Positions 4,823 through 26,700 of a DNA stretch of 64,000 nucleotides are shown piece by piece (within the stretch, counting starts at the first letter, position 1; each line of letters begins with the position of its first letter). A model generated the notes under the pieces. It did no database searches and was not told where the DNA came from. It worked only from the letters and a program-made list of their open reading frames with translations. Origin of the DNA: Anaerolineae bacterium. GTDB lineage: Bacteria; Chloroflexota; Anaerolineae; B4-G1; SLSP01. The DNA is taken from assembly GCA_025454475.1 (NCBI GenBank), contig JALOOJ010000001.1, positions 6,015 to 70,014 on the forward strand, given 5' to 3'. Position numbers and translations under genes: made by a program.

Positions 4823-6787
4823 ATGGACAACCGCCACCATGGCCGGACGACGCTCTCCTCAGCACTCGCGTTGAGTGTCGTGCTCGTGATGGCTGTCAGC
4901 CTGGGCGAGATCGCTCCCATCAGGCCCGGCATCTCCACGGGCGAACGTCCGGCCTCGCCGCTGGCGGGTTCTATCAAACGGGCGAGTTCCGCCATCGCCA
5001 TCACCGCCGATGGGCTGACCCTCGCAGCTGCAAACCCCGACTCCAACTCGGTCACATTGGTCAACGCCGCCACCCGCAGCGCACTTGCCGAGATCGGCGT
5101 AGGGATCGACCCACGCATGGTCGCCATCGATGAGGGCCACAACCGGCTGTATGTCACCAGCAGGGGCGATGACCGCGTCACACTGATCGATCTTGCCTCG
5201 CTGCAGGTAGTCACCGCGACGCAGACCGGCGGCCAGCCCTATGGGATCGTGGTGGACGCTGCCGGGCAGCTGCTCTACGTGGCGGAACAGGGGGCCGATC
5301 GCATCGCCGTGCTGGACGCTTTGACACTCGACCGGGTCGCGGCTTACCCGACCGCGGACCGGCCCAGTGGACTGGCGCTGTCGGCCGATGGACGGACGTT
5401 GGTCGTCACCCACCTGCTCACCAACACCCTCACGATCCTCACCGTCCGGCCCTTCACGGCCTACCTGCCTCTCCTCATTCGCGAAGGCATCACGACCGCT
5501 GTGTCCGGCGGTACACGAGCCACAGGAACCATCTGGGCTGCGAACATCCCAAGCACCACACTCTCGCTCTGGCCCGACAGCAACCTAGTGCAGTCCATCG
5601 TGATCGCGCCGGACGGGCAGCGGGCCTATGTGGTGCACACCCGCTCGAACACCGGAAACCGTGCCCTGACCTTCGACACGACCGTTTTCCCGGTCGTCTC
5701 GCTGATCGACCTCCCCAGCCGGCGACATCTGCTAGGACAGCAGTTCGACCTGGGCACATTCGATCCGCCGGGGGTGGGATTACCCTTCGATGCCGCACTC
5801 ACCCCGGATGGGGCTCAGCTCTGGGTGGTGAACGCCGGCAGCAATGATGTGACGGTGATTGACCTGACCACTCGGCAGCGCGTGGCGCATATCGAGGTGG
5901 GCGACAACCCGCGCGGCATCGCCTTCGCCCCGGATGGGTCGGAGGCCTACGTCAACGCCACGCTGGCGGGCACGGTCGAGGTGCTCAGCGCTGGCACCTA
6001 CACCATCACGGCGGTGATCACCGCGACCGAAATCCCCCTCCCCCCGGTGCTGCTCAACGGCAAGCGGCTGTTCAACTCCAGCGATGACCCGCGAATGGCG
6101 CGGGCTCAATGGATCAGCTGCGCCACGTGTCACTTCGAGGGTGAGCACGACGGCCGGACTTGGTTCTTCGGTTTCGCCGGACCGCGCAACACGACCAGCC
6201 TCCTGGGTATGATCGAGACCTATCCCCTGCGCTGGTCGGGGGAGTGGGATGAATCCGCGGATTCCGAGTTCGCGGTCCGCCAGGAGAACTTCGGTTCAGG
6301 CCTGATCACCGGCGAGCTGTATTGCGCATTGATGCCCCTGGATTGCGTCCACCAGCCCCCGAACCAGGGCAGATCCGACGACCTGGATAGCCTGGCCGCG
6401 TTCATTGACTCGCTGAGGATCCCGCTCAGTCCGACGCACGCCCACGGTGAGCCACTCAGCGCGGCGGAAACGCGCGGGCAAGCGAGCTTCCATATCCCGA
6501 CGCTGGGCTGCGTGACCTGCCACCCGCCGCCGTTGTATACCGATCTGCAGGCACACGATGTCGGCACCGCCACCGACGACGAGCGCATCGGCCCGGCCTA
6601 TGACACGCCCTCGCTGCGGGGCCTGTATGGCAGCGCACCCTACTTCCACGATGGCAGCGCCGGCACACTCCATGCGGCACTCACCCGCCCTACGCCCAAC
6701 AGCGAACACGATGTGTCTGAGAAGCTGACGGAGACGGAGACAACGGAGCTGGTTGAGTTTTTGCTGGCTCTGCCGTTCCAGCCTTGA
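4823..6787 (+). CDS. secreted YVTN-family beta-propeller fused to a di-heme cytochrome c peroxidase / MauG-family domain
   Basis: Start moved to MDNRHHGRTTLSSALALSVVLVMAVS (signal peptide; GGAGGCGAGGA RBS). N-terminal repeated YVTN-type blades (LYVTSRGDDRVTLIDL, LYVAEQGADRIAVLD, LWVVNAGSNDVTVIDL). C-terminal CATCH and CVTCH heme motifs plus PSLRG and PYFHDGS CCP signatures. Confidence 0.85.
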   Translation: MDNRHHGRTTLSSALALSVVLVMAVSLGEIAPIRPGISTGERPASPLAGSIKRASSAIAITADGLTLAAANPDSNSVTLVNAATRSALAEIGVGIDPRMVAIDEGHNRLYVTSRGDDRVTLIDLASLQVVTATQTGGQPYGIVVDAAGQLLYVAEQGADRIAVLDALTLDRVAAYPTADRPSGLALSADGRTLVVTHLLTNTLTILTVRPFTAYLPLLIREGITTAVSGGTRATGTIWAANIPSTTLSLWPDSNLVQSIVIAPDGQRAYVVHTRSNTGNRALTFDTTVFPVVSLIDLPSRRHLLGQQFDLGTFDPPGVGLPFDAALTPDGAQLWVVNAGSNDVTVIDLTTRQRVAHIEVGDNPRGIAFAPDGSEAYVNATLAGTVEVLSAGTYTITAVITATEIPLPPVLLNGKRLFNSSDDPRMARAQWISCATCHFEGEHDGRTWFFGFAGPRNTTSLLGMIETYPLRWSGEWDESADSEFAVRQENFGSGLITGELYCALMPLDCVHQPPNQGRSDDLDSLAAFIDSLRIPLSPTHAHGEPLSAAETRGQASFHIPTLGCVTCHPPPLYTDLQAHDVGTATDDERIGPAYDTPSLRGLYGSAPYFHDGSAGTLHAALTRPTPNSEHDVSEKLTETETTELVEFLLALPFQP

Positions 6788-6823
6788 CCCCGTACGGAGG
6801 GTATCCGTACCAGGAGGCTCGCC

Positions 6824-9800
6824 ATGCGCAAGATGATGGTTGTGTTTCTCTCCCTGTTCGGACTACTGGTCCTGAGTGCGGCGCTGCGAGCAGCGGAAGC
6901 AACGCCGCAGCCCGCTGCACCGCGCGACGCTGATCCGGCGCCTCCGGCTGAGGCACTGGACCTGTCGGCTAGCATCGTCGTCTCGGGCACCGTCTTCGGG
7001 CCTGGCGGGGGCGTCCCCAATGTCAGCATCCGGATTTCATCAGGTGTCGGCCCGCAGACAAAGATCACGGATGCCAACGGTTTCTACAGCGCCACCGTTC
7101 TCTCCGGCTTAATCGAGTTCGAGGTCCGACCTCCCCTCGTCACCCGCCTGAGCCAGATCAACACGGCCAGCGACGGCGCGCAGAGCGATTTCACCCAGAA
7201 CTTCACGGTGACTGCGGGCAGCCTGCTCAGCATGGTACCCGTGGGGACAGGCGGAGAGCCAATCACCGATACCGTCCTGCTGCGCGTGTGGCCCCTGCAA
7301 GCTGAGTTGACGGGGCTCACGTGGTATGAGATGGACTGGCAGGCCGCTTCTCAGCGGTTCGAGGCCGTGTTGCCGCAGGACGTGACCTACCTCAAGATCG
7401 CCCGGGTGCCCGAGGGCTACTATACGACCTTCGTGCCGGTGGATCTGCGCAGCGGCGATGTCACAGTGAACATCCCGCTCAACACCCACTATGTGCCCAT
7501 GCCGCCTGTTGACCCGCCCGATGCATCGAAGATCACGTTCGGCCCCCCCGATGAGCTGGGCGAGGTGACGGTGACGGGCGGACCCGGTGCGGTGATGCCA
7601 CTGGCACGGGTCTTTCTCAACAACCTGAACAGCATGCACCAGGCCTATGCCGTTTCGGGAGCCGACGGCAGCTTTACGGCCCGCATCTGGGCTCCGCCGG
7701 GTTCCAACATCCTCATCAAGCATGGCCCCAGCGGCTACTCCGCCGCGCCGGACGAAAGCTGGCCCGGTCTGAGCAATGGCCTGCCGGGGGGCAAAGTCAC
7801 CGTGCTTCCGGGCACGATCCTATTTGTGCCGTTTGACGTTCCCGCAGCGCCGGGGGACTTGCCCTTCGCGACGGCAGGCGCCGCTCAAAAGCACCTCGAT
7901 CTGGCCGCGGAGACGCGGGACTACGTCGGTGCGGCTTGGACGTTGACGGGGGTGGTGCATCCCCTGGGCAACGGCAGCTATGCGCTTAGCAGCACGCTGC
8001 GTCTCTATAGCCACGCACTCACGCTAAGCACCGATCTCGGCGCGATTCACACCCCAGGGTCTTTGAGCGTGTTGATGCAGCACAACGCTGATGGCCAACC
8101 TTTGGCCCACAAGAACCGCTTCGTGTCCACACTCCTCTCACCCACCGGGCTGCCCATCGAGACGGCAGCCCTGCCTACGCTGCAGTGGGGTGTTCCCGTG
8201 GACGGTATGAGCTGGCGCCACGTGAGTGAGCACGTCATCGAGGGCGACCTGGGCTGCACCTTTGTGATCAGTGACGACCTGCCAGGCATCTACCGTCCGC
8301 GTATCCAGTTCGCGGCGTTCGAGTCGGGTATGAGCGGGGTCCCGACCGACACGACCTGGCTGGCCTCCGAGGTCGAGACCTTTCAGAGCGCGCCTGACCA
8401 GGCGCTCCTACCCCCCATCGCCATCGGGGAGGTGGCGCGGCCGCGGCTGATCTGGCACCTGCTGACCAACACGTGGGTGCAGGGGCAGCGTGGCATCGGC
8501 GCCATCGGGGACCGCGATACCTTCGGGCTGGTCACTGAGATTGTCACCCAGGGGGATGTCTTCATCGTGCCGCCCGTGGAGGAGGTCACGGGGGAGCCCA
8601 TCACGTACCGGTTGGAGCCCTTCCTGCCCATGATCTCGTACGCGGATAGGGCACAGCCCGGGCCGCCGTATATCCCGTTCGAGCTGCCGGGCGGCGAGCT
8701 CCACGTCGTCGTCCGGAGGCCCGATGGGCAAGTGGTGGACCTCGGAACGGAACCCTTCGCCCAGTCTCTCGCGCAGACGCCCAGCACGGTCTCGGGGCAC
8801 GACGACAACCAGGGCACGCAGCAACTCGACGACGTCTACGCAGTGCGCGCGGCCTCCGAACGGTTCGCCTTCGTCTTTGAGCAGTATGGACGCTACGTCA
8901 TCACGATGACCGGCGTACTCGAGGATGTATGGGGCAACGTCTACACAGGGGGCGGCACGTACGAGGTGTGGGCAGCGCAGCCGCTGGACATTGACCCCGG
9001 CATGATGCCCGGCACACCCTTTGCGATCGGCGATGTCCTCAACCCCACCCTCCAGGTGTACCCGCGCGTCGGCGCCGAGGTGAGTCTGAGGATACGTCAG
9101 TATCAGGGATGGCAGCCCGCAGCGGTGGTCCTTGATCGCACCGTCGTGGGGACCGCAAACGCCTACGGCACCTTCACCCCCGAGATCGTGCCACCCATCA
9201 GGTTCACGGAGCCGGGCGAGTACCGCGTCGATCTGACGACAAGGTATTGGGATGAAGCCGGCAGGCTCAGGATGGGGGTGATGACATGGGGCGGCGTGGT
9301 GATGACACCACCGGCGCAGGCCGATCTGATCGCCCACGGGCGGCGCGGCTACGATGTGGGCACGTTCCCCGATATGACCTGGTTCGTGGGCCTGCGCGAC
9401 GTGGTCCTGCCCGCTGGTGTGGTGTCACACCTGCACGCGCCGTACTTCGCCGGCGACATTATCTGGAGCCGCATGGAGGATGGACTCTACGGCGACTCGC
9501 TGATCCTCAATCCGGGCCTCCAGGACACGACCGGAGGATACTGGTCCGAGCTGCTTCTGGATCGCGCCGTCCACATGCGGCTTGAGGGTATGGCGCCCAA
9601 CGACCTCCAGACGCGCGTTGATCGGGGCGAGATCCCCGTCTTCTTCAGCACAACCACGGGCAACGCCCCGCAGGTGGACCCCACCGTTCTCGATCAGGCC
9701 GCCTATGCCTATGAGTCCTCGCAGCGGCCCGGCGTGCGGGTCCGAGAGTACCTGGGCGACGATAGTCCGATAGCTTATTGGCGGCTCGACACAACCTACG

Positions 9801-10816
9801 ACGACCAATTAGGCGTGGGGGTAAAGGGAGACCAACCGAACGACTACAAGCTCCAGTACCTCGGCGTCGTCTTCCACGATCTGCCGAGTGGGCATAGCGA
9901 GTATCTGGGCTACGCCTCCAGTTGGGTACACCTGCCCGACGCCGACCCCTTGGGTAGCCGCGTGATGCCGCCTTTCGCCGGTGAGGGCAACGGCGGCTGG
10001 ACGACCGAAGGCGGCCCGATTATGACCCTCAAGGGCGAGGACATCCATATCTTCATCCAGCCCACCGGCGTCCAGCCCGGTGCCGTGCTCAATCCGGGAG
10101 ATATGTTCCGCTTCGCAGGTCATGTCAACCCCACGCTGGCCAGTCAGGTGGCCATCACCGTCACGGCACCCAGCGGCACCAAGTATCTCCGCGGCGGTCA
10201 GGCGGATTCCGTGGGCTACTTCTACGACCCTGCCGACAACTTCCCCGTCACCGAGCCGGGGCTGTGGTCGGTTGACGTCCACGTGTGGCACGACGGTGTG
10301 TGTTCCGCGGGCGCCACAATCCCGCCCTACCCACAGGGGGACGTGCTGGGTAGCGAGGGCGGTCGGTACTATTTCTACGTGGTATTTGATGACGCGCTCA
10401 GGCTGGGTGTCACCTCACCGCAGCCAGGCTATCTGCACTTCAGCGACATCGTCACGCCGGTCGAGATCACCGGCCCTGTGCCCCCAGGCCTGAGCAACGT
10501 GACGGTGGACTACACCATCGCTATGCCCGGCTTCATCCTAAGCCATGGCCAGGTGACGCCTGTGAACGGTGCCTACCACATCCTGTTCGATCCCACCGCC
10601 CTGGCCCAGGACTTTCCCAACCTCGATCTGATCAGCCGCGGCGATCTCGATGTACCGGGGTTGTCGGACACGTTCGCGATCGGGCTGCTGCTGCGTGGCC
10701 AACGCGGCGAGGAGCCGGTGTACCGCGCATCTGCCATCACGATCCAGGGGCAGCAGGTGTACGTGGACAATCCGCCCCCGGGGATCAGCGTCTTCCTACC
10801 GTTGGTGGTGAGGTAG
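6824..10816 (+). CDS. 1330-aa secreted protein of unknown function with N-terminal carboxypeptidase-regulatory-like (CarboxypepD_reg) domain
   Basis: Signal peptide MRKMMVVFLSLFGLLVLSAALRAAEA; SGTVFGPGGGVPNVSIRISSGVGPQTKITDANGFYSATV matches the CarboxypepD_reg pattern. No CxxCH, no HExxH. 37 bp after the previous gene and 5 bp before the next. Confidence 0.75.
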   Translation: MRKMMVVFLSLFGLLVLSAALRAAEATPQPAAPRDADPAPPAEALDLSASIVVSGTVFGPGGGVPNVSIRISSGVGPQTKITDANGFYSATVLSGLIEFEVRPPLVTRLSQINTASDGAQSDFTQNFTVTAGSLLSMVPVGTGGEPITDTVLLRVWPLQAELTGLTWYEMDWQAASQRFEAVLPQDVTYLKIARVPEGYYTTFVPVDLRSGDVTVNIPLNTHYVPMPPVDPPDASKITFGPPDELGEVTVTGGPGAVMPLARVFLNNLNSMHQAYAVSGADGSFTARIWAPPGSNILIKHGPSGYSAAPDESWPGLSNGLPGGKVTVLPGTILFVPFDVPAAPGDLPFATAGAAQKHLDLAAETRDYVGAAWTLTGVVHPLGNGSYALSSTLRLYSHALTLSTDLGAIHTPGSLSVLMQHNADGQPLAHKNRFVSTLLSPTGLPIETAALPTLQWGVPVDGMSWRHVSEHVIEGDLGCTFVISDDLPGIYRPRIQFAAFESGMSGVPTDTTWLASEVETFQSAPDQALLPPIAIGEVARPRLIWHLLTNTWVQGQRGIGAIGDRDTFGLVTEIVTQGDVFIVPPVEEVTGEPITYRLEPFLPMISYADRAQPGPPYIPFELPGGELHVVVRRPDGQVVDLGTEPFAQSLAQTPSTVSGHDDNQGTQQLDDVYAVRAASERFAFVFEQYGRYVITMTGVLEDVWGNVYTGGGTYEVWAAQPLDIDPGMMPGTPFAIGDVLNPTLQVYPRVGAEVSLRIRQYQGWQPAAVVLDRTVVGTANAYGTFTPEIVPPIRFTEPGEYRVDLTTRYWDEAGRLRMGVMTWGGVVMTPPAQADLIAHGRRGYDVGTFPDMTWFVGLRDVVLPAGVVSHLHAPYFAGDIIWSRMEDGLYGDSLILNPGLQDTTGGYWSELLLDRAVHMRLEGMAPNDLQTRVDRGEIPVFFSTTTGNAPQVDPTVLDQAAYAYESSQRPGVRVREYLGDDSPIAYWRLDTTYDDQLGVGVKGDQPNDYKLQYLGVVFHDLPSGHSEYLGYASSWVHLPDADPLGSRVMPPFAGEGNGGWTTEGGPIMTLKGEDIHIFIQPTGVQPGAVLNPGDMFRFAGHVNPTLASQVAITVTAPSGTKYLRGGQADSVGYFYDPADNFPVTEPGLWSVDVHVWHDGVCSAGATIPPYPQGDVLGSEGGRYYFYVVFDDALRLGVTSPQPGYLHFSDIVTPVEITGPVPPGLSNVTVDYTIAMPGFILSHGQVTPVNGAYHILFDPTALAQDFPNLDLISRGDLDVPGLSDTFAIGLLLRGQRGEEPVYRASAITIQGQQVYVDNPPPGISVFLPLVVR

Positions 10817-10820
10817 CGCG

Positions 10821-12440
10821 ATGCGCCATAGGGCGGGGGCAGTCTATCTCGTGCTGGTCATCGCGGCCACTATGCTCGGTGCATTATGGTTGCTCGCCAC
10901 CGGTGCTGCCCGTTCCGCAGCGACTGCTATCGTCAGCGGCAGGGTCGTGCGCCTGGATGGCCAACCCGCCGCAGGTGCCTGGGTGCGCGTGCAGACCACC
11001 GAGAACCTCACCACTGCTGCAGCCGACGGCAGCTTTTCGCTGGCTGACCTGATCGAGGGCACGACCGTCACGATCACCGCCTGGTATCCCGATCACAAGG
11101 TGGGCTGGGCTGCGGTCGTGCCCCCTAGCGCCGGCATCACGATCACGGTGAGACCCTACGATACCCGCGACAACCCCGGCTACGAATGGAACACCTCCTA
11201 TCCCGATCCGGCAAACCCCACGTTGGGCTGCGGTCACTGCATGGCACCCTCATTTGATGAGTGGCAACGCACGGCGCACGCCCAGGCAGGCACCAACCCG
11301 CGCTTCTTCTCCCTGTACAACGGGACGGACATCACCGGCACCCTCGTGATCTCGCCGGGCTACACACTGGACTTCCCCGGCACCGCAGGCAATTGCGCCA
11401 CCTGTCATGCGCCGGGCGCCGGATACGACGCGCCTTTCACCACCAATATGAACACCCTCACCGGCGTCGACCAGGAGGGCGTCTTCTGCGAGTTCTGCCA
11501 CAAGGTCGGGACAGTGTACCTGAATCCCGCCACGGGCCGGCCCTATGACAACGCGCCGGGCACCGTCTCGATGCGCCTCTACCGCCCTTACGCGGACGAT
11601 CAGATCTTCTTTGGCAGTGTGGACGACGTGGCACGGCGCGTGAGCTACCTGCCGCTGGAACGGCGGAGCCAGTTTTGCGCGCCGTGTCATCAGTTCTCCT
11701 TCTGGGGCACGCCCATCTACGAGAGCTTCGCCGAATGGCAGGCGAGCCCCTATCCGGCCCAGGGAATTGAGTGCCAGGCCTGCCATATGCCCCCAGGAAC
11801 CAGCCCCACCTTCTGCCTGCCCGAGAAGGGCGGATTGGCCCGCGACGCCTCGCGGCTGGCCTCACACCTGGACCTGGGCGTGAAGGATACGGCCTTCATG
11901 CAGAGCACGGTGGCGATGACGGTCACGGCGGCCCCAGTGATAGGCGCGGTGGAGGTCAGCGTGACCCTGACCAACGTTGGCGCGGGGCACCACGTCCCCA
12001 CCGACTTTCCCGGACGGCATATGATTCTCACCGTCGCCGCCACGAATGCCTCGGGAGATGCCCTCGTGCAGGTCAGCGGTCCCACTGTGCCCGATTGGGG
12101 TGGTCCGCAGGCTGGAGGGCCGGGCAAGGCCTTCGCCAAGATCCTGCAGGACGTGACTACCGGCGAATCGCCCGTGGTCAGCTATTGGAAACAGACTCGT
12201 ATCGTGAGCGACAATCGCCTGCCGGCTATGGGCAGCGACACGTCAACCTATACCTTCGCGGCGCCGGATTCCGGCGGACCGGTCACGGTGACCGCCGAAC
12301 TGCGCTTCCGGCGGGCCTTCGCGCAAGTGATGCACGATAAGGGCTGGCCCGACGATGATGTCTCGATGGCGCTGGGACAGGTCAGCCTGACAACAGCGCC
12401 CTGGTGGCGCGTGCACCTGCCGCTGGTGTTGCGCCGGTAG
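10821..12440 (+). CDS. membrane-anchored/secreted multiheme c-type cytochrome with N-terminal CarboxypepD_reg-like domain
   Basis: N-terminal hydrophobic segment; SGRVVRLDGQPAAGAWVRVQTTENLTTAAADGSFS CarboxypepD_reg-like; four canonical CxxCH (CATCH, CEFCH, CAPCH, CQACH) plus one CGHCM. Confidence 0.8.
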   Translation: MRHRAGAVYLVLVIAATMLGALWLLATGAARSAATAIVSGRVVRLDGQPAAGAWVRVQTTENLTTAAADGSFSLADLIEGTTVTITAWYPDHKVGWAAVVPPSAGITITVRPYDTRDNPGYEWNTSYPDPANPTLGCGHCMAPSFDEWQRTAHAQAGTNPRFFSLYNGTDITGTLVISPGYTLDFPGTAGNCATCHAPGAGYDAPFTTNMNTLTGVDQEGVFCEFCHKVGTVYLNPATGRPYDNAPGTVSMRLYRPYADDQIFFGSVDDVARRVSYLPLERRSQFCAPCHQFSFWGTPIYESFAEWQASPYPAQGIECQACHMPPGTSPTFCLPEKGGLARDASRLASHLDLGVKDTAFMQSTVAMTVTAAPVIGAVEVSVTLTNVGAGHHVPTDFPGRHMILTVAATNASGDALVQVSGPTVPDWGGPQAGGPGKAFAKILQDVTTGESPVVSYWKQTRIVSDNRLPAMGSDTSTYTFAAPDSGGPVTVTAELRFRRAFAQVMHDKGWPDDDVSMALGQVSLTTAPWWRVHLPLVLRR

Positions 12441-16598: not shown

Positions 16599-18035
16599 AT
16601 GACGCAGCAAACCGAACGGATTCCAGTTATCACCAAGATCATCTACGGCACCGGCGACTGGGGAGTGGCGTCGTTCAACACCCTGCGCCAGATCTTCTAC
16701 GCCATCTTCCTGACCGACGTGGTGGGGCTGGACCCGCGGCTGGCCTCCTTCGCCGCCTTCATCGGCGTGATCTGGGACGCGGTCAACGACCCGCTGGTCG
16801 GCGCCTGGAGCGACAAGCTGCGCAGCCGCTGGGGCCGTCGCCGTCCATTCCTGCTGCTCTTCGCGGTCCCCTATGGACTGGCCTTCCTGATCCTGTGGTG
16901 GGCGCCGCCGTGGAAGAGCCAGATCCTGCTGATGATCCATATGATGCTCGCCTACGCACTCAGCGACACCTTCCAGACGCTCGTCGTCGTACCCTTCCAC
17001 GCGCTGACGCCCGAGATGACCTCAGACTACGACGAGCGCACCTCGCTGGCGAGCTATCGCATGTTCTTCAACTTCCTGGCCTCGCTGGCTGCAGGCGTTG
17101 TCGCCCCCATGATCGTCGATGCGACGCTGGCGGGCGGCGGGACGCAGCAACAGGGGTACCTGGTGGCCTCCGCGATCTTCGGTGCCACATCGGTGGTCCC
17201 CTACCTGCTCATCTTCTTCGCGGTGCGCGAGAAGGTGCAGCCGGAGGATCTGCCCAAAGAGGTCTCGCTGCGGGACACGGTTCGCCAGGTCTGGGAGAAC
17301 GTGCCCTTCCGCTACGCGACCGCGATCTACATGCTGAACTGGGTGACCTTCGATCTGGTCGCCGCGGTGCTGCCTTTCTTCCTGGTCTATTGGATCGCCC
17401 AGGGCGACCTGCTGCTCAAGATGCCCCTGCTGGGCATGCCGATTGAGAGCACAGTCCTGGGCATCATGGCGATCCTGGCCGTCCCGGCTCTGCCGCTGTG
17501 GTCGTGGGCAGCGCATCGCTTCGGCAAGCGCCCGGCCTACCTGGCCGCCATTGCCTTCTGGGCGCTGATCCTGCTATCGCTGCTCTTCGTACCGCCGATG
17601 AAACTGGGGCTGGCGATGGTCATTGCCGTGCTGATGAGCTTGAGCTACTCGGCGGCGCATATGCTGCCCGAATCGATCTTCCCCGACGTCATCGACTGGG
17701 ATGAGCTGCGGACGGGCGAGCGCCACGAGGGCATCTATTACGGCGCCAAGAACTTCATCCGCAAGCTGACCACGGCGTTCGCGCTCTTTCTCACGCTGCA
17801 GGTGCTGGGATGGCTGGGGTATCAGAAGCCGCCCGACGGCGCCATTGTCTTCACACAGCCCGATGCGGTAATCACCGGCATTCGCGTCCTGGTGAGCCCG
17901 GTGGCGTCGGTGCTCCTCATCGCGCTGATGGTCGTCACCTGGTTCTATCCGCTCGACCGGCGGCGCTACGAGCGCGTGCGGCGGCTGTTGGCGCGCCGCC
18001 AGCGCCGTGACGCCCTCCGCCGTGCCTCTGCGTAG
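16599..18035 (+). CDS. MFS transporter, glycoside-pentoside-hexuronide (GPH):cation symporter family
   Basis: 12-TM profile; N-terminal IIYGTGDWGVASFNTLRQIFYAIFLTDVVGL and DPLVGAWSDKLRSRWGRRRPF typical of MelB/GPH permeases. Confidence 0.75.
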   Translation: MTQQTERIPVITKIIYGTGDWGVASFNTLRQIFYAIFLTDVVGLDPRLASFAAFIGVIWDAVNDPLVGAWSDKLRSRWGRRRPFLLLFAVPYGLAFLILWWAPPWKSQILLMIHMMLAYALSDTFQTLVVVPFHALTPEMTSDYDERTSLASYRMFFNFLASLAAGVVAPMIVDATLAGGGTQQQGYLVASAIFGATSVVPYLLIFFAVREKVQPEDLPKEVSLRDTVRQVWENVPFRYATAIYMLNWVTFDLVAAVLPFFLVYWIAQGDLLLKMPLLGMPIESTVLGIMAILAVPALPLWSWAAHRFGKRPAYLAAIAFWALILLSLLFVPPMKLGLAMVIAVLMSLSYSAAHMLPESIFPDVIDWDELRTGERHEGIYYGAKNFIRKLTTAFALFLTLQVLGWLGYQKPPDGAIVFTQPDAVITGIRVLVSPVASVLLIALMVVTWFYPLDRRRYERVRRLLARRQRRDALRRASA

Positions 18036-18312
18036 CACGAACTGCGGCCCCGCGTCTGCGCGGGCGTTCGCCCGCGACCAGGCGCCTTTCGACTCACGTG
18101 CACTGCTTCGTCGCAAAGCGCCCTCCGGCCCGTGGGCTCGCCGCGTCGCCCGGAGGCGAACGCCCGTTCCGGGTGCAGGCAAGACAGTTCGCCGTATACT
18201 TCGAACATGGGGCAACCGGTCGCTCTACACCGCAATAGCGGGATAGACATCACTTGGTGGCGCGCCGGTCGCGTGTTACACTGCCCTCACGCCAACGGGA
18301 GGGCGTCACCCT

Positions 18313-19683
18313 GTGCCGGCACTCACAACCTATCGCAATGCTATCCCTCTCGGATTCTGTCCCGGCTGCGGTCACCGGCTGATCCTCGAGTCTCTCGATC
18401 GCGCCCTGGTGCGCCTACAGTGGGACCCCGCCAAGGTTGTCATCGTGAGCGACATCGGCTGTGTGGGGCTCTCGGACCAGTATCTCATCACCAGCGGGTT
18501 CCACGGGCTGCACGGGCGGAGCCTGACCTATGCCACGGGCATCAAGCTGGCCCGCCCTGACCTCCACGTGATTACCCTGATCGGCGATGGGGGCTGCGGG
18601 ATCGGTGCTGCGCACCTGGTCAGCGCGGCACGGCGCAATATCGGCGTGACCACGCTGGTCTTTAACAACCTCAACTTCGGCATGACGGGCGGCGAGCACA
18701 GCGTCACGACGCCCACGGACGGTAGGACCACCACCACCCCCTGGGGGAACACCGAGGTGCCGCTCGACATCGCGCAGACCGTGGCAGCCAACGGTGCGAT
18801 GCACGTGTGGCGCGGCACGGTCTTCGAGCCGGACCTCGACGACCGGATCGAGGCGGCGCTGCGCCACAACGGCTTTGCGCTGCTGGATATCTGGGACCTG
18901 TGTGTGGCCTACTATGCCGCCACCAACAAGGCAACGCCGCAGGCGCTCCTGGCAACGATGGAGCAATTCGGGCTGGCGCGGGGAACCCTCCGCTATCCAT
19001 CCGCAGACTCCAGACCCGAAGGCAGCGCCGCGCTCGCCGCGGTCTGGGCTCCCCTGCGGGGCAAGCCTGCAAGCCCGCCCAAGCCGCTGGACATGCGGTT
19101 TTCGTCGGCCCTGACGCGCCCCTTTGGCGTGACGCTCGCAGGCGCCGCCGGCACGCACGTCCGCGCCGCGGGACACCTCGTCGGCGCCGCCGCGACGCTG
19201 TCCGGCCTCTGGACCGCCCAGCGCGACGACTATCCCACCACCGTGCGGGCCGGTCACAGCACCAGCGAGGTCCTGATCTCGCCCGACCCGATCCACCACA
19301 TGGGGATCACACGCCCCGACGTGCTCTTCGTCCTGGCCCCCGAGGGGTACAAGAAGGCAGCGGCGAGCATTGGAAGGATGACGCCTGAGAGCTGGATCTT
19401 CGTCGTCCCCGAGCTTGCGGATCAGGTCACCGCTCAACTCGCCAATCACCCATCACCGCCTCACATACGGATCCTGGCTTTGGACGCGTTGAAGGGCATC
19501 GCGAGGTCGAGCAGGATGCTCGCCGCCGTCGCTGCGGGGGTCGCTTCTCTGGGCATCCTCGATCCCGAGGCGCTGATCGCCGGGGCTGGCGAGCTCGGCG
19601 CGGCCTACGCGCAGGTGAACCAGGACGCCGTCCGCACGGCACTGAGCGCGGCGGATGACATCGTCCGCCTCCCCGACGCATAG
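18313..19683 (+). CDS. 2-oxoacid:ferredoxin oxidoreductase beta subunit (TPP-binding) fused to a gamma-subunit-like domain
   Basis: YRNAIPLGFCPGCGH and GDGG TPP-binding motif of KorB/PorB; C-terminal about 180 aa resembles the POR gamma/catalytic domain. No alpha subunit gene nearby. GTG start. Confidence 0.65.
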   Translation: MPALTTYRNAIPLGFCPGCGHRLILESLDRALVRLQWDPAKVVIVSDIGCVGLSDQYLITSGFHGLHGRSLTYATGIKLARPDLHVITLIGDGGCGIGAAHLVSAARRNIGVTTLVFNNLNFGMTGGEHSVTTPTDGRTTTTPWGNTEVPLDIAQTVAANGAMHVWRGTVFEPDLDDRIEAALRHNGFALLDIWDLCVAYYAATNKATPQALLATMEQFGLARGTLRYPSADSRPEGSAALAAVWAPLRGKPASPPKPLDMRFSSALTRPFGVTLAGAAGTHVRAAGHLVGAAATLSGLWTAQRDDYPTTVRAGHSTSEVLISPDPIHHMGITRPDVLFVLAPEGYKKAAASIGRMTPESWIFVVPELADQVTAQLANHPSPPHIRILALDALKGIARSSRMLAAVAAGVASLGILDPEALIAGAGELGAAYAQVNQDAVRTALSAADDIVRLPDA

Positions 19684-21601
19684 ACGAGGCAATGTGAGGC
19701 CGGACCTGTCACGCCGGGCGATCCTGATCATCGGCGTCCTTACCGCCGGTGTACTGATGGCCCTCGCGCTCAACCTGAGCCCGTACCTTCGCGGCCCCGA
19801 GAGCTGGCGCTGGGCGTATGCCATCCCCGGCTGGCCGTGGCGACACCTGATCCCCGCGGTCGTCGTGGGCGGCTATTGCCTGGCCGTGACGCGCGCGCTA
19901 CAACGCTCACCAACTGGTCCAAAGGCCGCCGCACGGTTCCTGCTCCTGACGGCGGTGAGTGTTCCGCTGATCCAGGCGGCGCTGCTTTTCCCCGAGTCGC
20001 CGGACATCCTGCGCCCGCTCTTCTATCGCACGATCTCCGCGGGCGCAAGCGGCGTCTTCACCGTTGGAAGCCGCATTCAGGCGCTCCTGCCGTCCCTGCG
20101 CGACTACCCTGCGCTTATGCCCACCTTCCCGGTGCATCCCCAGCGCTATCCACCCGGCCTGCCCGTCCTATTCTACCTGGCGCGCAGGGCCTTCGAGTTG
20201 GCGCCCGGCCTGGCGGATCGGGTGGGGTTCACGCTCCGCCTCTACCAGTGCCACGATCTGGCGCTGATGCGCCTGTCCAACGCGACGCTCGCCACGGCGG
20301 CGATCCAGATGGCCCTGCCCATTGTCAGCGGCCTGGTCGTCTTTCCACTCTACGGGTTGGCAAAGGCAGTGGGCGGGAAACAAGCCGCGTGGGTAGCCGT
20401 GGGACTCTACCCCCTGGTGCCGTCGTTCGCGCTGTGGAGCGCCCGCTGGGATCAGGCCTATCCCCTCGTGGCGTGTCTGGCCTGGTGCCTGTTCGTCACC
20501 GGCCTCGTCAAAGATCGACTGTGGCTGCTGTTTGCCGCGGGGCTGACGCTTGGAGGAGGGCTGTTCCTGAGCTTTGGCCTGATCTCGATGGCGATGCCGC
20601 TGGGCATCACAGGCATCCTCTGGGCGATCTTGCGGCCCGGCGATCGCCGTCTGCGGCGCTTGGTACTGCGTGGTGCAGTAACGCTATCCGGCGTAGTTCT
20701 GCCCTGGGCGGCCTACCAGTGCATCGTGGGCAATGGGTTCGCCGACATCTGGCGCGTGTCGATGTCCTTCCATCTGGGGCTCTCCAGGGACTACTGGACC
20801 TGGCTCCTCTACCACCCCTACGATTTTCTCCTCTTCCTGGGACTCCCCATCGCCGGGCTCTTTGCCATCGGCGTCGTCCGGTCGCTGCGGCAGCCGCGCG
20901 AGCCTGCGTCCATCCTGACCCTCGCGTTCGCGCTGAGCCTGGTCGTGCTGATCCTGAGCGGCGTGGCGCGGGGTGAGGTGGCCCGGGTCTGGCTGTTTCT
21001 GTCCCCATTTCCAGTGATCGCTGCCGCATGCGTGCTCGCCCACTGGCCGCAGCGACGGTGCTATCTCCCGGTCATCTTCGGGTTGATGGCGATGAGCGTG
21101 CTCGTCCTCAACATATTCCTGCGTGTTGTGACCACCGGCGTGACCGATCCGCCTCACGTGGAGACCCAGGCCGAGGCGCCCGCGTTGGCCCATCGCTCTG
21201 GCGCCCGGTTCGGGGAGGACATCACCCTGATCGGCTACGACGTGAGCGACCGGACCTTGCGTGCAGGCAGCGCCTTCACCGTCACCGTGGCCTGGGATAC
21301 GCTCGCGCCGCTCTCAACCTCGTACACCGTGTTCAACCACCTGCGATCGTCCGACGGCGATCTGGTGGCGCAGATCGATGGCCTGCCGATGGGCGGCCTC
21401 GCGCCGACGACGTGTTGGCGCCCCGGACAGGTCATCGTGGACACGGTCGTGATCGAGGTACCGGAGAGACTTGCGCCGGGGACATACACGCTGGTGACGG
21501 GGCTGTACGACTACGACACAGGCGACCGCCTGCCCGTCGTCGGGCCCGGCGCCACGGCGGATGGCGAGCTGAACCTGACAACGGTTGAGGCGCCGCCGTG
21601 A
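19655..21601 (+). CDS. polytopic membrane protein, GT-C type (ArnT/PMT-like) glycosyltransferase candidate with C-terminal extracytoplasmic beta-sandwich
   Basis: Multiple TM helices then a soluble C-terminal domain (ITLIGYDVSDRTLRAGSAFTVTVAWD...TYTLVTGLYDYDTGDRL) typical of GT39/GT83-like proteins. Overlaps the previous gene by 29 nt. Confidence 0.45.
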   Translation: MTSSASPTHRRGNVRPDLSRRAILIIGVLTAGVLMALALNLSPYLRGPESWRWAYAIPGWPWRHLIPAVVVGGYCLAVTRALQRSPTGPKAAARFLLLTAVSVPLIQAALLFPESPDILRPLFYRTISAGASGVFTVGSRIQALLPSLRDYPALMPTFPVHPQRYPPGLPVLFYLARRAFELAPGLADRVGFTLRLYQCHDLALMRLSNATLATAAIQMALPIVSGLVVFPLYGLAKAVGGKQAAWVAVGLYPLVPSFALWSARWDQAYPLVACLAWCLFVTGLVKDRLWLLFAAGLTLGGGLFLSFGLISMAMPLGITGILWAILRPGDRRLRRLVLRGAVTLSGVVLPWAAYQCIVGNGFADIWRVSMSFHLGLSRDYWTWLLYHPYDFLLFLGLPIAGLFAIGVVRSLRQPREPASILTLAFALSLVVLILSGVARGEVARVWLFLSPFPVIAAACVLAHWPQRRCYLPVIFGLMAMSVLVLNIFLRVVTTGVTDPPHVETQAEAPALAHRSGARFGEDITLIGYDVSDRTLRAGSAFTVTVAWDTLAPLSTSYTVFNHLRSSDGDLVAQIDGLPMGGLAPTTCWRPGQVIVDTVVIEVPERLAPGTYTLVTGLYDYDTGDRLPVVGPGATADGELNLTTVEAPP

Positions 21602-22847: not shown

Positions 22848-23795
22848 ATGATCGATGTCACCGGGTTGACCAAGTTCTACGGCCCGATCCGCGCGCTCGA
22901 GGATGTCTCGTTCAGCATCAAGAGCGGCGAGATCGTGGGCCTGTTGGGACCCAACGGCGCGGGCAAGACGACGTTCCTCAAGATCCTGACGGGGTATCTT
23001 CAGCCAGATGAGGGGACCGTCCTCGTCGACGGGCTGGACGTGCAGGAGCACACGCGCGAGGTCCAGTCGCGGGTTGGGTATCTGCCCGAGACGGCCCCGC
23101 TCTATCCGGAGCTGTCGACGCAGGGCTATCTGCAGATGATCGCCGCGCTGCGGCTGATCCCCGAGGAGGACCGGCAGCGCCTGATCTCCGAGGCCGTGTA
23201 TGCCACGGGGCTCGAGGAACACCTCACCCGCCCCATCGGGCAACTGAGCAAGGGGTTCCGCCAGCGGGTGGGACTGGCCCAGGCCATCCTCCACAAGCCC
23301 AAGCTGCTGATTTTCGATGAGCCCACGGTGGGCCTGGACCCCACGCAGATCGTGGAGATCCGCAACCTGATCCGACGGCTCTCCAAGCACAGCACAGTCC
23401 TCTTCTCGACGCACATTCTCTCGGAGGTCGAAGCGCTCTGCGATCGCGCCATCATTCTCATCAATGGGCGCGTCGAGGCGGATGCGCGGATGGCGGAGCT
23501 GGCGGCAACCTCGGACGCGATCCTGGTGCTGCAGCGCCCGGTGTCCGATGCACGGGCGACCCTGAGCAAGATGGCGCTGGCCCAGACCGTCACGTCGTTC
23601 CAGAGCAGCGATGGGTATCCCGCGCTCCGGGTCCATGGCAAGCCTAACGCCGCCTCAGCCCTGACCCCCGCGATCTATGATCTGGCGCGGCAAAACGGTT
23701 GGCCCGTTCGCGAGCTGCGCCGGGACGTGCGAACGCTTGAGAGCGTGTTCAACGCACTTGCGCTGGGCCCAGAGGCCGCGGAGGTGGCAGCATGA
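22848..23795 (+). CDS. ABC transporter ATP-binding protein (GldA-like, ABC-2 type)
   Basis: Walker A GPNGAGKTT, signature LSKGFRQRV, Walker B LLIFDEPTVGLD; GGGAGGAG RBS. Confidence 0.9.
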   Translation: MIDVTGLTKFYGPIRALEDVSFSIKSGEIVGLLGPNGAGKTTFLKILTGYLQPDEGTVLVDGLDVQEHTREVQSRVGYLPETAPLYPELSTQGYLQMIAALRLIPEEDRQRLISEAVYATGLEEHLTRPIGQLSKGFRQRVGLAQAILHKPKLLIFDEPTVGLDPTQIVEIRNLIRRLSKHSTVLFSTHILSEVEALCDRAIILINGRVEADARMAELAATSDAILVLQRPVSDARATLSKMALAQTVTSFQSSDGYPALRVHGKPNAASALTPAIYDLARQNGWPVRELRRDVRTLESVFNALALGPEAAEVAA

Positions 23796-26700
23796 ACGCG
23801 CGCACAACGACTCCCCAAGACGCATCCTTCGGGTCGAAAATGAACACGATGATCCAACAGACGCTAACAATCACCCGCAAGGAGCTGCGTGGGTACTTCG
23901 GGTCAGCCGTTCCGACGGCCCTGATCTTCATCGGCACGTTCCTGGCCGCAGCCCTCTTCTCGTTCTTCTGGGTGGATACCTTCTTCGCGCGCGGCATCGC
24001 CGACGTGCGCCCGCTCTTCCAGTGGATGCCGGTGCTGATGATCTTCCTGGTCGCGGCATTGACAATGCGGCAGTGGAGCGAGGAGCAGAGCTCGGGGACG
24101 CTGGAGATCCTGCTCACGCTGCCGGTGTCGACGGTCCAGTTGGTGCTGGGCAAGTTCCTGGCGGTGGTAGCGCTCGTGGCAGTGGCTCTAGGACTGACGC
24201 TGTTCCTGCCGCTGACCGTGTCGCTGCTGGGTAACCTCGATTGGGGGCCCGTCGTTGGCGGGTATCTCGCGGCGATCCTGCTCGCGAGCGCCTATGCCGC
24301 CATCGGCCTCTTCGTCTCCTCGCGCACCGACAACCAGATCGTGTCGCTGATCGCCACGGTGCTTCTGTGTGGCGTCCTCTACGGCGTGGGCACCGCGGGA
24401 GTCACCGACTTCTTCGGCAACCAGGTCGGTGACATCCTCAGGGCCATCGGCGCGGGCAGCCGTTTCGAGTCGATCCAGCGCGGCGTGATCGACCTGCGCG
24501 ACCTCGCCTACTACGTCACGTTAGCGGGCATCTTCCTCACGCTCAACGTCCTGTCGCTCAAGGCCAAGGGCTGGAGCGAGGCCGAGCAGGGGCTGCCGAA
24601 GCGGCGCGGCGTCGCAATCACCTCGGCGCTGTTGGCGGTCAACCTGCTGATGGTCAACGTCTGGGCCGCGCCGCTACGCGGGCTGCGCATCGACCTGACC
24701 CAGAACAAGGAATACACGCTCTCACAGACGACGAAGGACCTGCTGCGCTCGCTGCAGGAGCCGCTGCTGATCCGGGGCTACTTCAGTGAGAAGACCCACC
24801 CGTTACTGGCGCCGCTCGTGCCCACAGTGCGCGATATGCTGCAGGAGTACCAGGTCGCATCGGGTGGCACCGTCCAGTTGGAAATCATCGACCCAGCGAC
24901 GGAGCCTGAGAAGGAAGCCGAGGCCAACCAGGTCTACGGCATCCGGCCCACGCCGTTCCAGATCACCGGGCGCTACGAAGCCTCGGTCATCAACTCCTAC
25001 TTCGATATCCTCATCCAGTATGGGGACCAGAGCGCCGTGCTCACCTTCAACGACCTGATCGAGGTAAAGGCAACCAACGCCGGCGACCTGGACGTTGGCC
25101 TCCGCAACCTGGAGTACGATCTCACCAGCAACATCAAGAAGGTGGCCTACAGCTTCCAGAACACCGACGCCGTCCTGGCATCGCTCACCGAGCCGGTCGA
25201 GCTGGTCGCCTATGTCACGCCAAACACGCTTCCCGAGGCGCTGGCCGCAGTCCCCGCCACGATCGAGACCGTCCTTCAGGACATCGCGAGCCGCTCGGCG
25301 GGAAAGTTCACCTACCGCTTCGTGGACCCGGGCGCCGCTGATAGCGAGATCACCCCGCAGGAGCTATACGACCGCTACGGGCTCCAGCCGCTGGCAGCCT
25401 CCCTCTTCTCGGGAGAGAGCTACTACCTCTATATGGTCCTCGAGGCCGGGGGCCAAGCGCACATCATCTACCCGCAGGGCGAGCTCGCCGAAGCGGATGT
25501 GCGCGCGGCGGTCGAGTCCGCCCTCAAGCGCTCCGCATCAGGGTTCCTGCAGGTGGTTGGCCTGTGGACCCCGCCCGCGACGCCCACCCAGGATATGTTT
25601 GGCCAGATGCAGCAGCCGATCTCATCCTGGGAGCAGATCAGCCAGGCGCTGGGCGAGGAGTATGAGGTGCGCACCGTCGATCTGAGCACCGGCGTTATCG
25701 CGGGCGATATCGATGTGCTCGTGCTCATTGGCCCACAGGGCCTCGACGAGAAGGCGCTGTACGCGATCGACCAGCACCTGATGCGCGGCGGCGCGCTGGT
25801 GGTCGCCGCCGGAAACATGACCATCATGCCCGACCAGTTCAGCGGCGGCCTCGGTTCTCAGCCCGTCACCGGGGGGCTCCAGGAGATGCTGCAGGCCTAC
25901 GGCTTCACGGTCGAGAACACGCTAGTGTTGGACCCGCAGAACGAGCCGTTCCCCATCCCGGTGGTCCGTGAGGTCGGCGGATTCCAGGTTCAGGAGATTC
26001 AGGCGCTGGACTATCCTCTGTTTGTCGACATCCGTTCCGATGGGATGGCGGCAAACAACCCCATCGTCTCGGGCCTGTCGGCGGTGACACTGAACTGGGC
26101 CTCCCCAATCACGGTCGACGCGACCAAGAATGCAGGTCGCGAGGTAGCAGTCCTGTTACAGTCCACAGCAGGGGCGTGGACACAGCAAGACTTCAACATC
26201 CAGCCCGACTTCACCCTCTATCCCGATGCGGGCTTTGCCCAGGTAGGGGACACCAAGGCCTACACGTTGGCCGTATCGGCGCGAGGCACGTTCGAGTCCT
26301 TCTTCAAGGGCAAGCCTTCACCGCTTGAGGCGGTGGCTACCGCTGAAGAGGCCCCGGCAGAGGATGCGACGCCAACACCGGCGCCGGTGAACGTGGGCAC
26401 AATCGAGATCTCGCCTGATACCACCCGCGTGGTCATCATCGGCAGTTTGGAGTTCATCGACGATATCGTGCTGCAGCTCTCCTCCACATTGAGCGGCGAC
26501 CGGTACCTCAACAACCTCAAGCTGGTGCAGAACGCCGTCGCGTGGACGGTCGAGGACCTGGACCTGCTGGAGATCCGCTCGCGCGGCACAGCGGCGCGGG
26601 TCCTGATCCCACTGACGGAAAGCGCGCAGTCATTCTGGGAGCTGGTGAACTACGCTCTGGCGCTCATCTCCATCGTGGCGATCGGCATCGTCAGCACGAT

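Follow-up and report, generated by a model that had tools for sequence, protein, structure and literature searches.

We have identified a pair of adjacent genes, g1 and g2, that is conserved in Chloroflexota and several other phyla, and we propose, with about even confidence, that their products form a two-subunit extracytoplasmic haem enzyme complex with a third protein, g3, as electron partner. The three genes lie in a 64,000-nucleotide stretch of DNA (the window) from an Anaerolineae bacterium, where they form a tightly packed set predicted to be co-transcribed, and each product has a hydrophobic N-terminal segment for export or anchoring (Table 1). A scan for promoters and terminators gave no informative signal. 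A first-pass annotation of the window had described a three-gene unit of exported redox proteins matching no described system. Both points hold: the triad is seen again in Chloroflexota, and g2 falls outside every known enzyme family.

Table 1. Features of g1, g2 and g3, numbered from the first nucleotide of the window
Feature	Position	Strand	Remarks
g1	4823..6787	+	exported YVTN-type beta-propeller and di-haem CCP-like domain, 654 aa
g1 beta-propeller (about aa 50-400)	4970..6022	+	TIGR02276 YVTN repeats, 2.4e-40; hydrazine_beta, 5.3e-30
g1 YLPLLIR	5462..5482	+	opens a propeller insertion of 25-50 aa
g1 di-haem CCP/HzsC-like domain	6035..6784	+	motifs and alignments
g1 haem motif CATCH	6119-6133	+	
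g1 Trp471 within PLRWSG	6224-6241	+	invariant in separate, g2-adjacent g1 genes
g1 haem motif CVTCH	6509-6523	+	
g2	6824..10816	+	exported, haem-free, Cys-poor multi-beta-sandwich protein, 1330 aa
g2 putative Sec-type signal peptide, MRKMMVVFLSLFGLLVLSAALRA/AE	6824..6895	+	from reading of the sequence
g2 conserved core (aa 225-1316)	7496..10771	+	model pLDDT 89.5, pTM 0.90
g2 C-terminal FLPLVVR tail	10793..10813	+	disordered in the model
g3	10821..12440	+	exported or anchored pentahaem-type cytochrome, 539 aa
g3 putative CarboxypepD_reg/transthyretin-like beta-sandwich (aa 35-112)	10923..11156	+	
g3 haem-binding cap	11208..11885	+	sequence motifs
g3 variant motif CGHCM	11229-11243	+	
g3 CxxCH motifs	11394-11408, 11487-11501, 11676-11690, 11772-11786	+	
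g3 Ig-like beta-sandwich stem	11910..12395	+	
g3 AGHHVPT motif	11982-12002	+	conserved; in the Ig-like stem
g3 C-terminal HLPLVLRR tail	12414..12437	+	

Among GTDB species-representative genomes of Chloroflexota and several other phyla, g1 and g2 stand side by side in 49 of the 57 informative loci, and a reciprocal adjacency test gave 19 of 21. The divergences of the two proteins correlate (r=0.90, a value confounded by species phylogeny), and in two natural proteins g2 and g1 are fused. We conclude that the conserved unit is the g1-g2 pair. The first-pass annotation had treated the whole triad as the unit; the triad does recur in Chloroflexota, but g3 accompanies the pair in that phylum only, and the pair is equally conserved without g3 and the C-terminal tail in Gammaproteobacteria, Binatia, Acidobacteriota and Thermodesulfobacteriota. 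Nor is g2 a known enzyme with a spread of its own, its distribution being tied to that of g1. The association is not absolute: g1 is missing within 10 kb at about 15% of g2 loci, and in some genomes g2 paralogues stand in tandem, 2 to 5 or more of them, close to just one g1 or with no g1 in view. These paralogue numbers and g1-less loci would also be expected if g2 were a substrate or a variable surface protein. The genes neighbouring the non-Chloroflexota loci include no additional conserved partner, with one exception: Binatia- and Thermodesulfobacteriota-type loci encode a secreted protein of about 174-178 aa that lacks haem.

The g1 product, identical to NCBI protein P0157, is the fusion of a YVTN propeller and a CCP domain that the first-pass annotation had described, as matches to TIGR02276, Pfam CCP_MauG (34.7 bits; gathering threshold 25.6) and PDB structures confirm. 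Over the propeller region the PDB matches are 1l0q_A (7e-35) and 5c2v_B (9e-21). That annotation had also called g1 MauG-like. Membership of the CCP/MauG superfamily stands: g1 has two CxxCH motifs and the inter-haem Trp471, shares the PSLRG and PYFHDG motifs with bacterial di-haem CCPs, MauG and MbnH, and has Asn456, in GPRNT, aligned to the Ca-site Asn of the CCPs. It differs from all of these in its N-terminal propeller and its 1330-aa partner. The closer likeness is to hydrazine synthase (HZS), an enzyme of anammox. In the PDB, the g1 matches 5c2v_B (9e-21) and 5c2v_C (2.6e-16) compare with 1e-9 for the best CCP, and NCBIfam gave 124 bits for hydrazine_BC as against 43.5 bits for TTQ_mauG. 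Among proteins of solved structure, HZS beta and gamma rather than MauG are thus nearest to g1 by sequence comparison. One close g1 homologue (P0236) is automatically named ‘Hydrazine synthase subunit gamma’ at NCBI. The distal-ligand position of haem 2 is consistent with this relationship, since the Met of classical CCPs is absent from g1 (that of CCP 3o5c aligns to Asn626) and His629, three residues downstream, is invariant and aligned to a His of HzsC. We infer that the second haem is bis-His ligated.

Like HZS beta and gamma (HzsB and HzsC, fused as HzsBC in Scalindua), g1 has a seven-bladed YVTN-type propeller followed by a CCP-like di-haem module, here in one chain. The hydrazine_BC, _beta and _gamma models all match, at scores below their curated NCBIfam cut-offs (124 vs 1250, 105 vs 560 and 71 vs 625 bits, respectively). 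HZS alpha, with its HZS_alpha domain and haem alpha-I, is not encoded alongside g1, and that partner is unlike the all-beta-sandwich g2. HZS gamma-His144 is itself absent from g1 and is replaced in the alignment by Trp471, which is lost in both g2-g1 fusion proteins. An inter-haem Trp is common to CCPs and MauG, and non-anammox HZS homologues have a Trp at the gamma-144 position (PMC12758564). Cys501 of g1, aligned to the third haem-linking residue of HZS, gamma-Cys165, was considered as a family hallmark and rejected, being unconserved among 47 homologues. Hagglund et al. (2025) described non-anammox HZS-like clusters that pair alpha with beta-gamma, in clades I-IV (PMC12758564). As in those clusters, g1 is encoded beside a large partner, and FG-GAP and c554-type haem modules recur nearby; the beta-gamma half with its Trp fits these clades, but their alpha-like neighbour is absent here, g2 being unrelated to alpha. 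The published survey retained only clusters with an alpha homologue (PMC12758564), so the g1-g2 pairing appears to be undescribed in the literature that we found.

The larger partner, g2, contains no haem motif, as the first-pass annotation had stated. Relatives were sought in a representative library with a single sequence as query. The family comprises 736 clusters at 50% identity, and no Pfam model covers its core. This 1100-aa core is conserved throughout, at only 23-38% identity; about 30 positions are invariant and over 100 nearly so, among them many charged residues. Invariant residues are densest at about aa 830-1050, and the invariant Tyr and Trp (Y490, Y713, Y961, Y963, Y985 and W986) are concentrated in this best-conserved region. 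Only two Cys are present, neither conserved across the family. The N-terminus is of lipoprotein type in some homologues, and some contain FG-GAP/VCBS insertions. A confident model predicts a compact array of beta-sandwich domains in which we found no recognisable catalytic or cofactor site. Against the PDB it gave no global match, only Ig- or macroglobulin-like domains being matched. Thus g2 is like alpha-2-macroglobulin, complement C3-C5 chains and the Ig arrays of prokaryotic S-layer proteins or adhesins in domain type only; its compact arrangement differs from that of alpha-2-macroglobulin and C3-C5, with no global superposition. We rejected two assignments of g2, to the thioester or alpha-2-macroglobulin proteins (the likeness is local, E 2e-15, with a TM of about 0.1 and no thioester motif) and to HZS-alpha-like proteins (no haem, HZS_alpha domain or propeller). 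As modelled, g2 is the founding member of an undescribed family with a new domain arrangement.

The third protein is a pentahaem-type cytochrome that adopts the c552/MccSep fold and has gained a transthyretin-like domain at its N-terminus. This is a candidate for the CarboxypepD_reg-like domain of the first-pass annotation, which had also described four to five haems. It shares a five-haem cap and Ig-like stem with pentahaem c552 of Thermochromatium tepidum (5ze8) and with MccSep/ExtKL, and differs from them in its N-terminal domain, its C-terminal tail and its first haem motif. Besides four CxxCH motifs, g3 has an invariant CGHCM aligned to the haem-1 CANCH, a putative fifth haem site. It matches Cytochrome_C554 and scores 34.9 bits against NCBIfam ExtKL (cut-off 250). 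The polysulfide reductase MccSep uses a haem-ligating Cys239 and Sec325 in catalysis (bioRxiv 10.1101/2025.11.18.688581); g3 lacks both and has no conserved Cys beyond its five motifs, and we rejected this assignment. Since g3 is far more abundant than g2 and also occurs alone, it is not dedicated to the g1-g2 module. A literature search on Chloroflexota multihaem cytochromes found nothing specific.

In loci of the Anaerolineae type, g1, g2 and g3 each carry the same heptapeptide, YLPLVLR/K. In g1 it lies in the propeller insertion, which is restricted to Anaerolineae-type homologues and conserved within them; the corresponding column is unconserved in an alignment of all phyla. In g2 and g3 it forms a C-terminal tail, and the same tail closes unrelated secreted proteins containing CBM96, BNR, CARDB or Golvesin domains. 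Its codons vary synonymously, and we therefore rejected a DNA-level repeat. The heptapeptide is probably a lineage-specific surface tag; our literature search on it found nothing relevant. The first-pass annotation had suggested a common scaffold or cell-surface attachment from a CarboxypepD_reg-like domain in both g2 and g3. That domain is weak evidence for a scaffold, and the heptapeptide is the stronger common feature.

The proposed complex would echo the architecture of HZS, whose large third subunit holds a propeller lacking any cofactor and a di-haem module of CCP type. The large subunit of the present complex would be g2, an unrelated haem-free beta-sandwich array of about 1100-1300 aa that may act as a scaffold or substrate-binding platform. 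Pentahaem g3 would exchange electrons with the second, putatively bis-His haem of g1, from which they would pass on to the CCP-type haem, the first of the two. A small oxidant would be turned over there, a peroxide or a nitrogen/oxygen species being the default guess. In this Anaerolineae bacterium the heptapeptide probably fixes all three proteins at the cell surface. The sequence and structure comparisons show what the domains are, that g1 and g2 are linked, co-diverge and can be fused, that the g2 arrangement is new, and which fold g3 has. We infer that g1 and g2 bind each other, which way electrons move, how the haems are ligated, which class of substrate is used and what the tail does.

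A different reading, which we consider unlikely, sees in g2 a scaffold at the cell surface or of S-layer-like type, with the redox proteins g1 and g3 tethered to it. They would serve extracellular electron transfer or scavenge peroxide, and no active site would be formed jointly. The fold of g2 consists solely of Ig/macroglobulin-like sandwiches, resembling complement and alpha-2-macroglobulin chains, S-layer proteins and adhesins; the extreme scarcity of Cys, the lipoprotein-type N-termini or FG-GAP/VCBS insertions of some homologues, and a tail in g2 and g3 that is typical of secreted proteins also fit. However, the pair is just as well conserved in the phyla that lack g3 and the tail. Conservation of g2 spans its whole core, and proteins that are pure scaffolds or form S-layers generally diverge faster than that. 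As for g1 being a true hydrazine synthase or part of a cryptic anammox-like nitrogen pathway, the argument would be that its best solved relatives are HZS beta and gamma, together with the automatic name of P0236; the alpha subunit is missing, which refutes membership of HZS and leaves this idea highly improbable.

The first-pass annotation had suggested g2 as a substrate matured by a MauG-like g1, which would install a Tyr/Trp cofactor or cross-link and leave g2 as the working protein. Known MauG-type enzymes are encoded beside their protein substrates, as in mau and mbn clusters, and g1 belongs to the right superfamily and keeps the inter-haem Trp471; the clustered invariant Tyr/Trp of g2, and several g2 paralogues per g1 (one enzyme, many substrates), are also as expected. 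Yet g1 falls far under the cut-offs for TTQ_mauG (TIGR03791; 443.85) and MbnH (28 bits; 362.85), and mau and mbn genes are both absent, the locus flanks containing no mau gene. In MauG a Tyr is the axial ligand of the six-coordinate haem, whereas the haem-2 distal position of g1 is the invariant His629, an assignment that comes from alignment to HzsC and CCP only. No g2 Cys is conserved, which rules out CTQ- or Cys-Tyr-type cofactors. The natural g2-g1 fusions make maturation less likely, since they imply a permanent 1:1 association, which would be uncommon between a maturase and the protein it acts on. We regard maturation as conceivable but unlikely, and as unsupported so far; the evidence lies nearer to the other suggestion of that annotation, a redox module for electron transfer or of peroxide type.

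More broadly, and as a tentative suggestion that we judge less probable than the complex itself, g1-g2 may be an unrecognised haem enzyme, a sibling of HZS with a recruited haem-free partner and an unassigned reaction, and in Anaerolineae-type Chloroflexota the heptapeptide may serve as a previously unknown signal for surface sorting or docking. If so, the enzyme would span Chloroflexota, Acidobacteriota, Binatia, Thermodesulfobacteriota and Gammaproteobacteria, and candidate reactions would be the transformation of nitrogen oxides, hydroxylamine or peroxide, or oxidation of a g2-held substrate, possibly via a Tyr- or Trp-derived site. Soils, sediments, groundwater and the deep ocean harbour the host lineages (SAR202, Binatia, Acidobacteriota and Anaerolineae) in abundance, and a module of two to three genes would be a tractable target for new extracytoplasmic haem chemistry. 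The tail may help to explain how surface proteins are retained in Chloroflexota, whose cell envelope is poorly understood. HZS was long believed to have no relatives, distant homologues with alpha and beta-gamma being reported first in 2025 (PMC12758564). Our analysis suggests that a beta-gamma half of HZS type also pairs with a wholly different partner, and the g1-g2 module may thus offer a handle on the evolutionary assembly of multi-subunit haem enzymes such as HZS.

The three genes (see table) are separated by 36 nt (g1-g2) and 4 nt (g2-g3) in a window of ~64% G+C, and AGGAGG precedes the g2 start. The upstream neighbour, a BT_1020-like propeller gene with a sialidase-like CBM, is divergently oriented, and a separate homocysteine S-methyltransferase gene lies 183 nt downstream; hence, g1-g2-g3 is a self-contained unit. 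All sequence motifs cited in the first-pass annotation are present in the window, and the recorded proteins P0001 and P0157, from an Anaerolineae MAG, are identical to proteins encoded here. Two further regions of the window are unrelated to g1-g2-g3: an operon-like pair at 23792-27819, encoding a 1019-aa fusion protein that joins an ABC-2 permease to DUF7088 and ABC_transp_aux, then a DUF4340 protein; and, at 47309-49867 (-), a gene for a DEAD-box helicase (852 aa) that carries HNH and MrfA-type Zn-binding (MZB) domains.

Genes of the propeller-cytochrome unit, with positions in the window
Gene	Position	Strand	ORF
g1 (exported YVTN propeller and di-haem CCP-like protein)	4823-6787	same as g2, g3	654 aa
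g2 (haem-free giant)	6824-10816	same as g1, g3	1330 aa
g3 (multihaem cytochrome)	10821-12440	same as g1, g2	539 aa

We searched for g1, g2 and g3 by tblastn in 71 loci fetched with a g2 profile from GTDB species-representative genomes. Among loci with informative flanks, a g1-type gene directly adjoins g2 in 26 of 29 from Chloroflexota and 23 of 28 from other phyla. The triad of the first-pass annotation recurs in Chloroflexota, and the g1-g2 adjacency extends across phyla; g3 is next in 20 of 31 Chloroflexota loci and 1 of 26 elsewhere. Genomes of the Anaerolineae type have the order g1-g2-g3; in Binatia, Thermodesulfobacteriota, Gammaproteobacteria and SAR202 it is mostly g2-g1. In a reciprocal test, a g1 profile retrieved 80 metagenome loci, 21 of them flanked by 2 kb or more on each side; g2 is next door to g1 in 19 of these 21, and one exception has STAND-NTPase and WD40 genes there. 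Pairwise divergences of g1 and g2 correlate across 46 loci (r=0.90, to which shared phylogeny contributes). The most telling case is that of P0415 (1818 aa) and P0420 (1394 aa), two g2 representatives that are natural g2-g1 fusions: behind the g2 core lie a full g1-like propeller and the two haem motifs (31-32% identity to g1; E=1e-63 and 7e-57). Of the 150 best g2 representatives, no others contain any CxxCH. We read the fusion, the near-obligate two-way adjacency, the co-divergence and the translational coupling as joint evidence that g1 and g2 act as one complex.

Some loci depart from this layout. At locus L090 (12788-20435), g2 is replaced after a close g1 homologue (63% identity) by genes for a STAND-NTPase/RyR-domain protein and a large WD40-repeat protein, which looks like a defence-type insertion displacing g1's partner. 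Some genomes carry several copies of the module or tandem g2 arrays, and Chloroflexota frequently have an additional g2 paralogue that bears an FG-GAP/VCBS insertion. In many Chloroflexota loci a paralogue of ~1900 aa, bearing this propeller insertion, is adjacent to one of ~1330-1375 aa (L003:5786-9913, L076:5856-9974); published HZS-like clusters (HZS, hydrazine synthase) also hold an FG-GAP (CRTAC1-family) gene. Binatia- and Thermodesulfobacteriota-type loci encode an extra conserved haem-less secreted protein of ~174-178 aa, which matched no Pfam family and whose gene precedes g2 in some loci and follows it in others (L157:6285-6809 and 17787-18311; L026:4982-5518; L001:16022-16546).

The annotated fusion of a YVTN propeller to a CCP/MauG-type domain holds for g1: YVTN repeats match at 2.4e-40 (NCBIfam), and lactonase/YNCE-type propeller repeats and CCP_MauG exceed the Pfam thresholds. 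The top full-length NCBIfam models are those of HZS (hydrazine_BC 5.2e-36, beta 5.3e-30, gamma 8.6e-20), all scoring far under the model cut-offs; MauG (2.2e-11) and MbnH (1.1e-6) are weaker. Comparison of the haem domain with PDB entries gives 2.6e-16 for HZS gamma (5c2v_C) and only 1e-9 for the top peroxidase; the propeller matches HZS beta at 9e-21. On alignment with HzsC, the gamma subunit, gamma-His144 corresponds to Trp471 of g1, the third haem-linking Cys165 to Cys501, and a further His to His629; the Met ligand of CCP corresponds to Asn626, three residues before His629. Across 47 g1 homologues, all adjoining a g2 gene, neither CxxCH motif varies, nor does Trp471 or His629; Cys501 is not conserved in this set. 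The Trp471 position is lost in P0415 and P0420 (PLHV versus PLRW). We infer that the second haem of g1 is probably bis-His ligated, like HZS gamma-II, the surface-exposed haem where electrons enter (PMC12607021). Non-anammox beta-gamma-like proteins with the same Trp substitution have been reported, in an analysis limited to proteins whose genes neighbour one for an HZS-alpha homologue (Hagglund et al. 2025; PMC12758564). An Anaerolineales MAG protein 64% identical to g1 (P0236) is publicly named 'Hydrazine synthase subunit gamma', an automatic name that is misleading because these genes have no accompanying alpha subunit.

As first annotated, g2 has no haem motif (no CxxCH, and only two Cys); its CarboxypepD_reg-like domain is only a sub-threshold match, the sole hit to Pfam or NCBIfam families. 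A word-indexed search found 36 proteins, and a scan of GTDB species-representative genomes 196 relatives; when 1.84 billion cluster representatives were searched exhaustively with phmmer, 736 matched at E<=1e-3 (335 of them at E<=1e-30), the majority aligning across the entire 1100-aa core. Judged by sequence, g2 is a real family. Its core has ~30 invariant and >100 nearly invariant positions despite 23-38% identity, densest at ~aa 830-1050 (D878, Y961, Y963, R968, Y985, W986, D1003 and others). An AlphaFold2 model of aa 225-1330 (pLDDT 89.5, pTM 0.90) is nearly all beta. HZS alpha was not among the g2 matches, and the g2 family profile matched no PDB sequence. Together with the model, these results indicate that g2 consists of compactly arrayed beta-sandwich domains, an arrangement for which no global analogue has been described; we rejected homology to HZS alpha.

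The g3 family is large (1957 matches, the best 120 at least 57% identical), and also occurs without g1 or g2 nearby (L075). Four CxxCH and one C-G-H-C-(M) are invariant. The family profile matches pentahaem cytochrome c552 of Thermochromatium tepidum (5ze8, E=8.8e-11), whose first haem motif, CANCH, corresponds to CGHCM of g3, and PHAMPTG to AGHHVPT. CGHCM (window 11229-11243) has Met at the usual proximal His position and a His inside the motif; a haem may be ligated there in an unusual way, or the motif may hold a non-haem metal. The MccSep/ExtKL selenoenzyme has the same haem cap and Ig-like stem fold, and its activity depends on Cys239 and Sec325 (bioRxiv 10.1101/2025.11.18.688581); g3 has no conserved Cys outside its haem motifs and is therefore not such an enzyme.

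A short motif of YLPLVLR type is found on all three proteins. It ends g2 (FLPLVVR, window 10793-10813) and g3 (HLPLVLRR, 12414-12437), and Chloroflexota homologues of both terminate in [FY]LP[LVA][IV]x[RK] plus 0-7 residues, an ending absent from homologues in other phyla. In g1, YLPLLIR (5462-5482, within an insertion region at 5447-5572) opens a low-complexity insertion of 25-50 aa at one fixed propeller site in Anaerolineae-type homologues; the insertion is missing from all other lineages compared, including Dehalococcoidia and SAR202. The fetched loci together contain 3429 ORFs of 150 aa or longer; 58 have such an end, against ~1.9 expected from the motif's internal frequency. The tailed proteins include unrelated ones of secreted type, with CBM96, BNR/sortilin, CARDB/DUF11 or Golvesin_C domains; many such proteins in Chloroflexota loci end in [FY]LP[LIVA][IV]x[RK] then 0-7 residues, with further examples at L015:1432-5994(-), L016:2-3160 and 16862-20329, L025:233-1570 and 17465-21283, and L039:19532-20476. 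Codons vary synonymously, indicating that the peptide, rather than a DNA element, is under selection. The most economical reading is a surface anchoring or docking signal, making the heptapeptide a candidate lineage-specific sorting/anchoring tag; we found no paper mentioning it.

A genuine hydrazine synthase is effectively excluded. We consider it unlikely that the module is a surface scaffold or electron conduit: the g2 fold and heptapeptide tails would fit, but g1-g2 is equally conserved in other phyla, without g3 and the tail, and residue conservation is strong. The MauG-like maturation suggested by the first-pass annotation, with g1 oxidatively modifying g2 as its substrate, seems quite improbable. 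Invariant Tyr and Trp residues and multiple paralogues of g2 speak for it; the His, not Tyr, ligation pattern of g1, its low MauG and MbnH scores and the natural g2-g1 fusions speak against it.

All the parts can be placed in known superfamilies, namely the HZS beta-gamma/CCP type, the c552-type cytochromes and the Ig-like arrays. The g2 family has no Pfam model over its core and no structural analogue. In line with the first-pass annotation, which did not recognise a described system, we found no earlier account of a beta-gamma-like haem protein in conserved partnership with this haem-free giant. We favour, with moderate confidence, an explanation in which g1 and g2 act as one complex and g3 is their electron partner. 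By analogy with HZS, and given the shared architecture and conserved Trp471 and His629, the g1 propeller would serve as structural adaptor, electrons would enter at haem 2 and catalysis would take place at haem 1. The role of g2 is not evident from its fold; it might offer a platform for substrate binding, contribute a second non-haem site or act as a scaffold. As a member of an electron-relay cytochrome family, g3 would be the natural redox partner in Chloroflexota, and other phyla presumably rely on other periplasmic cytochromes.
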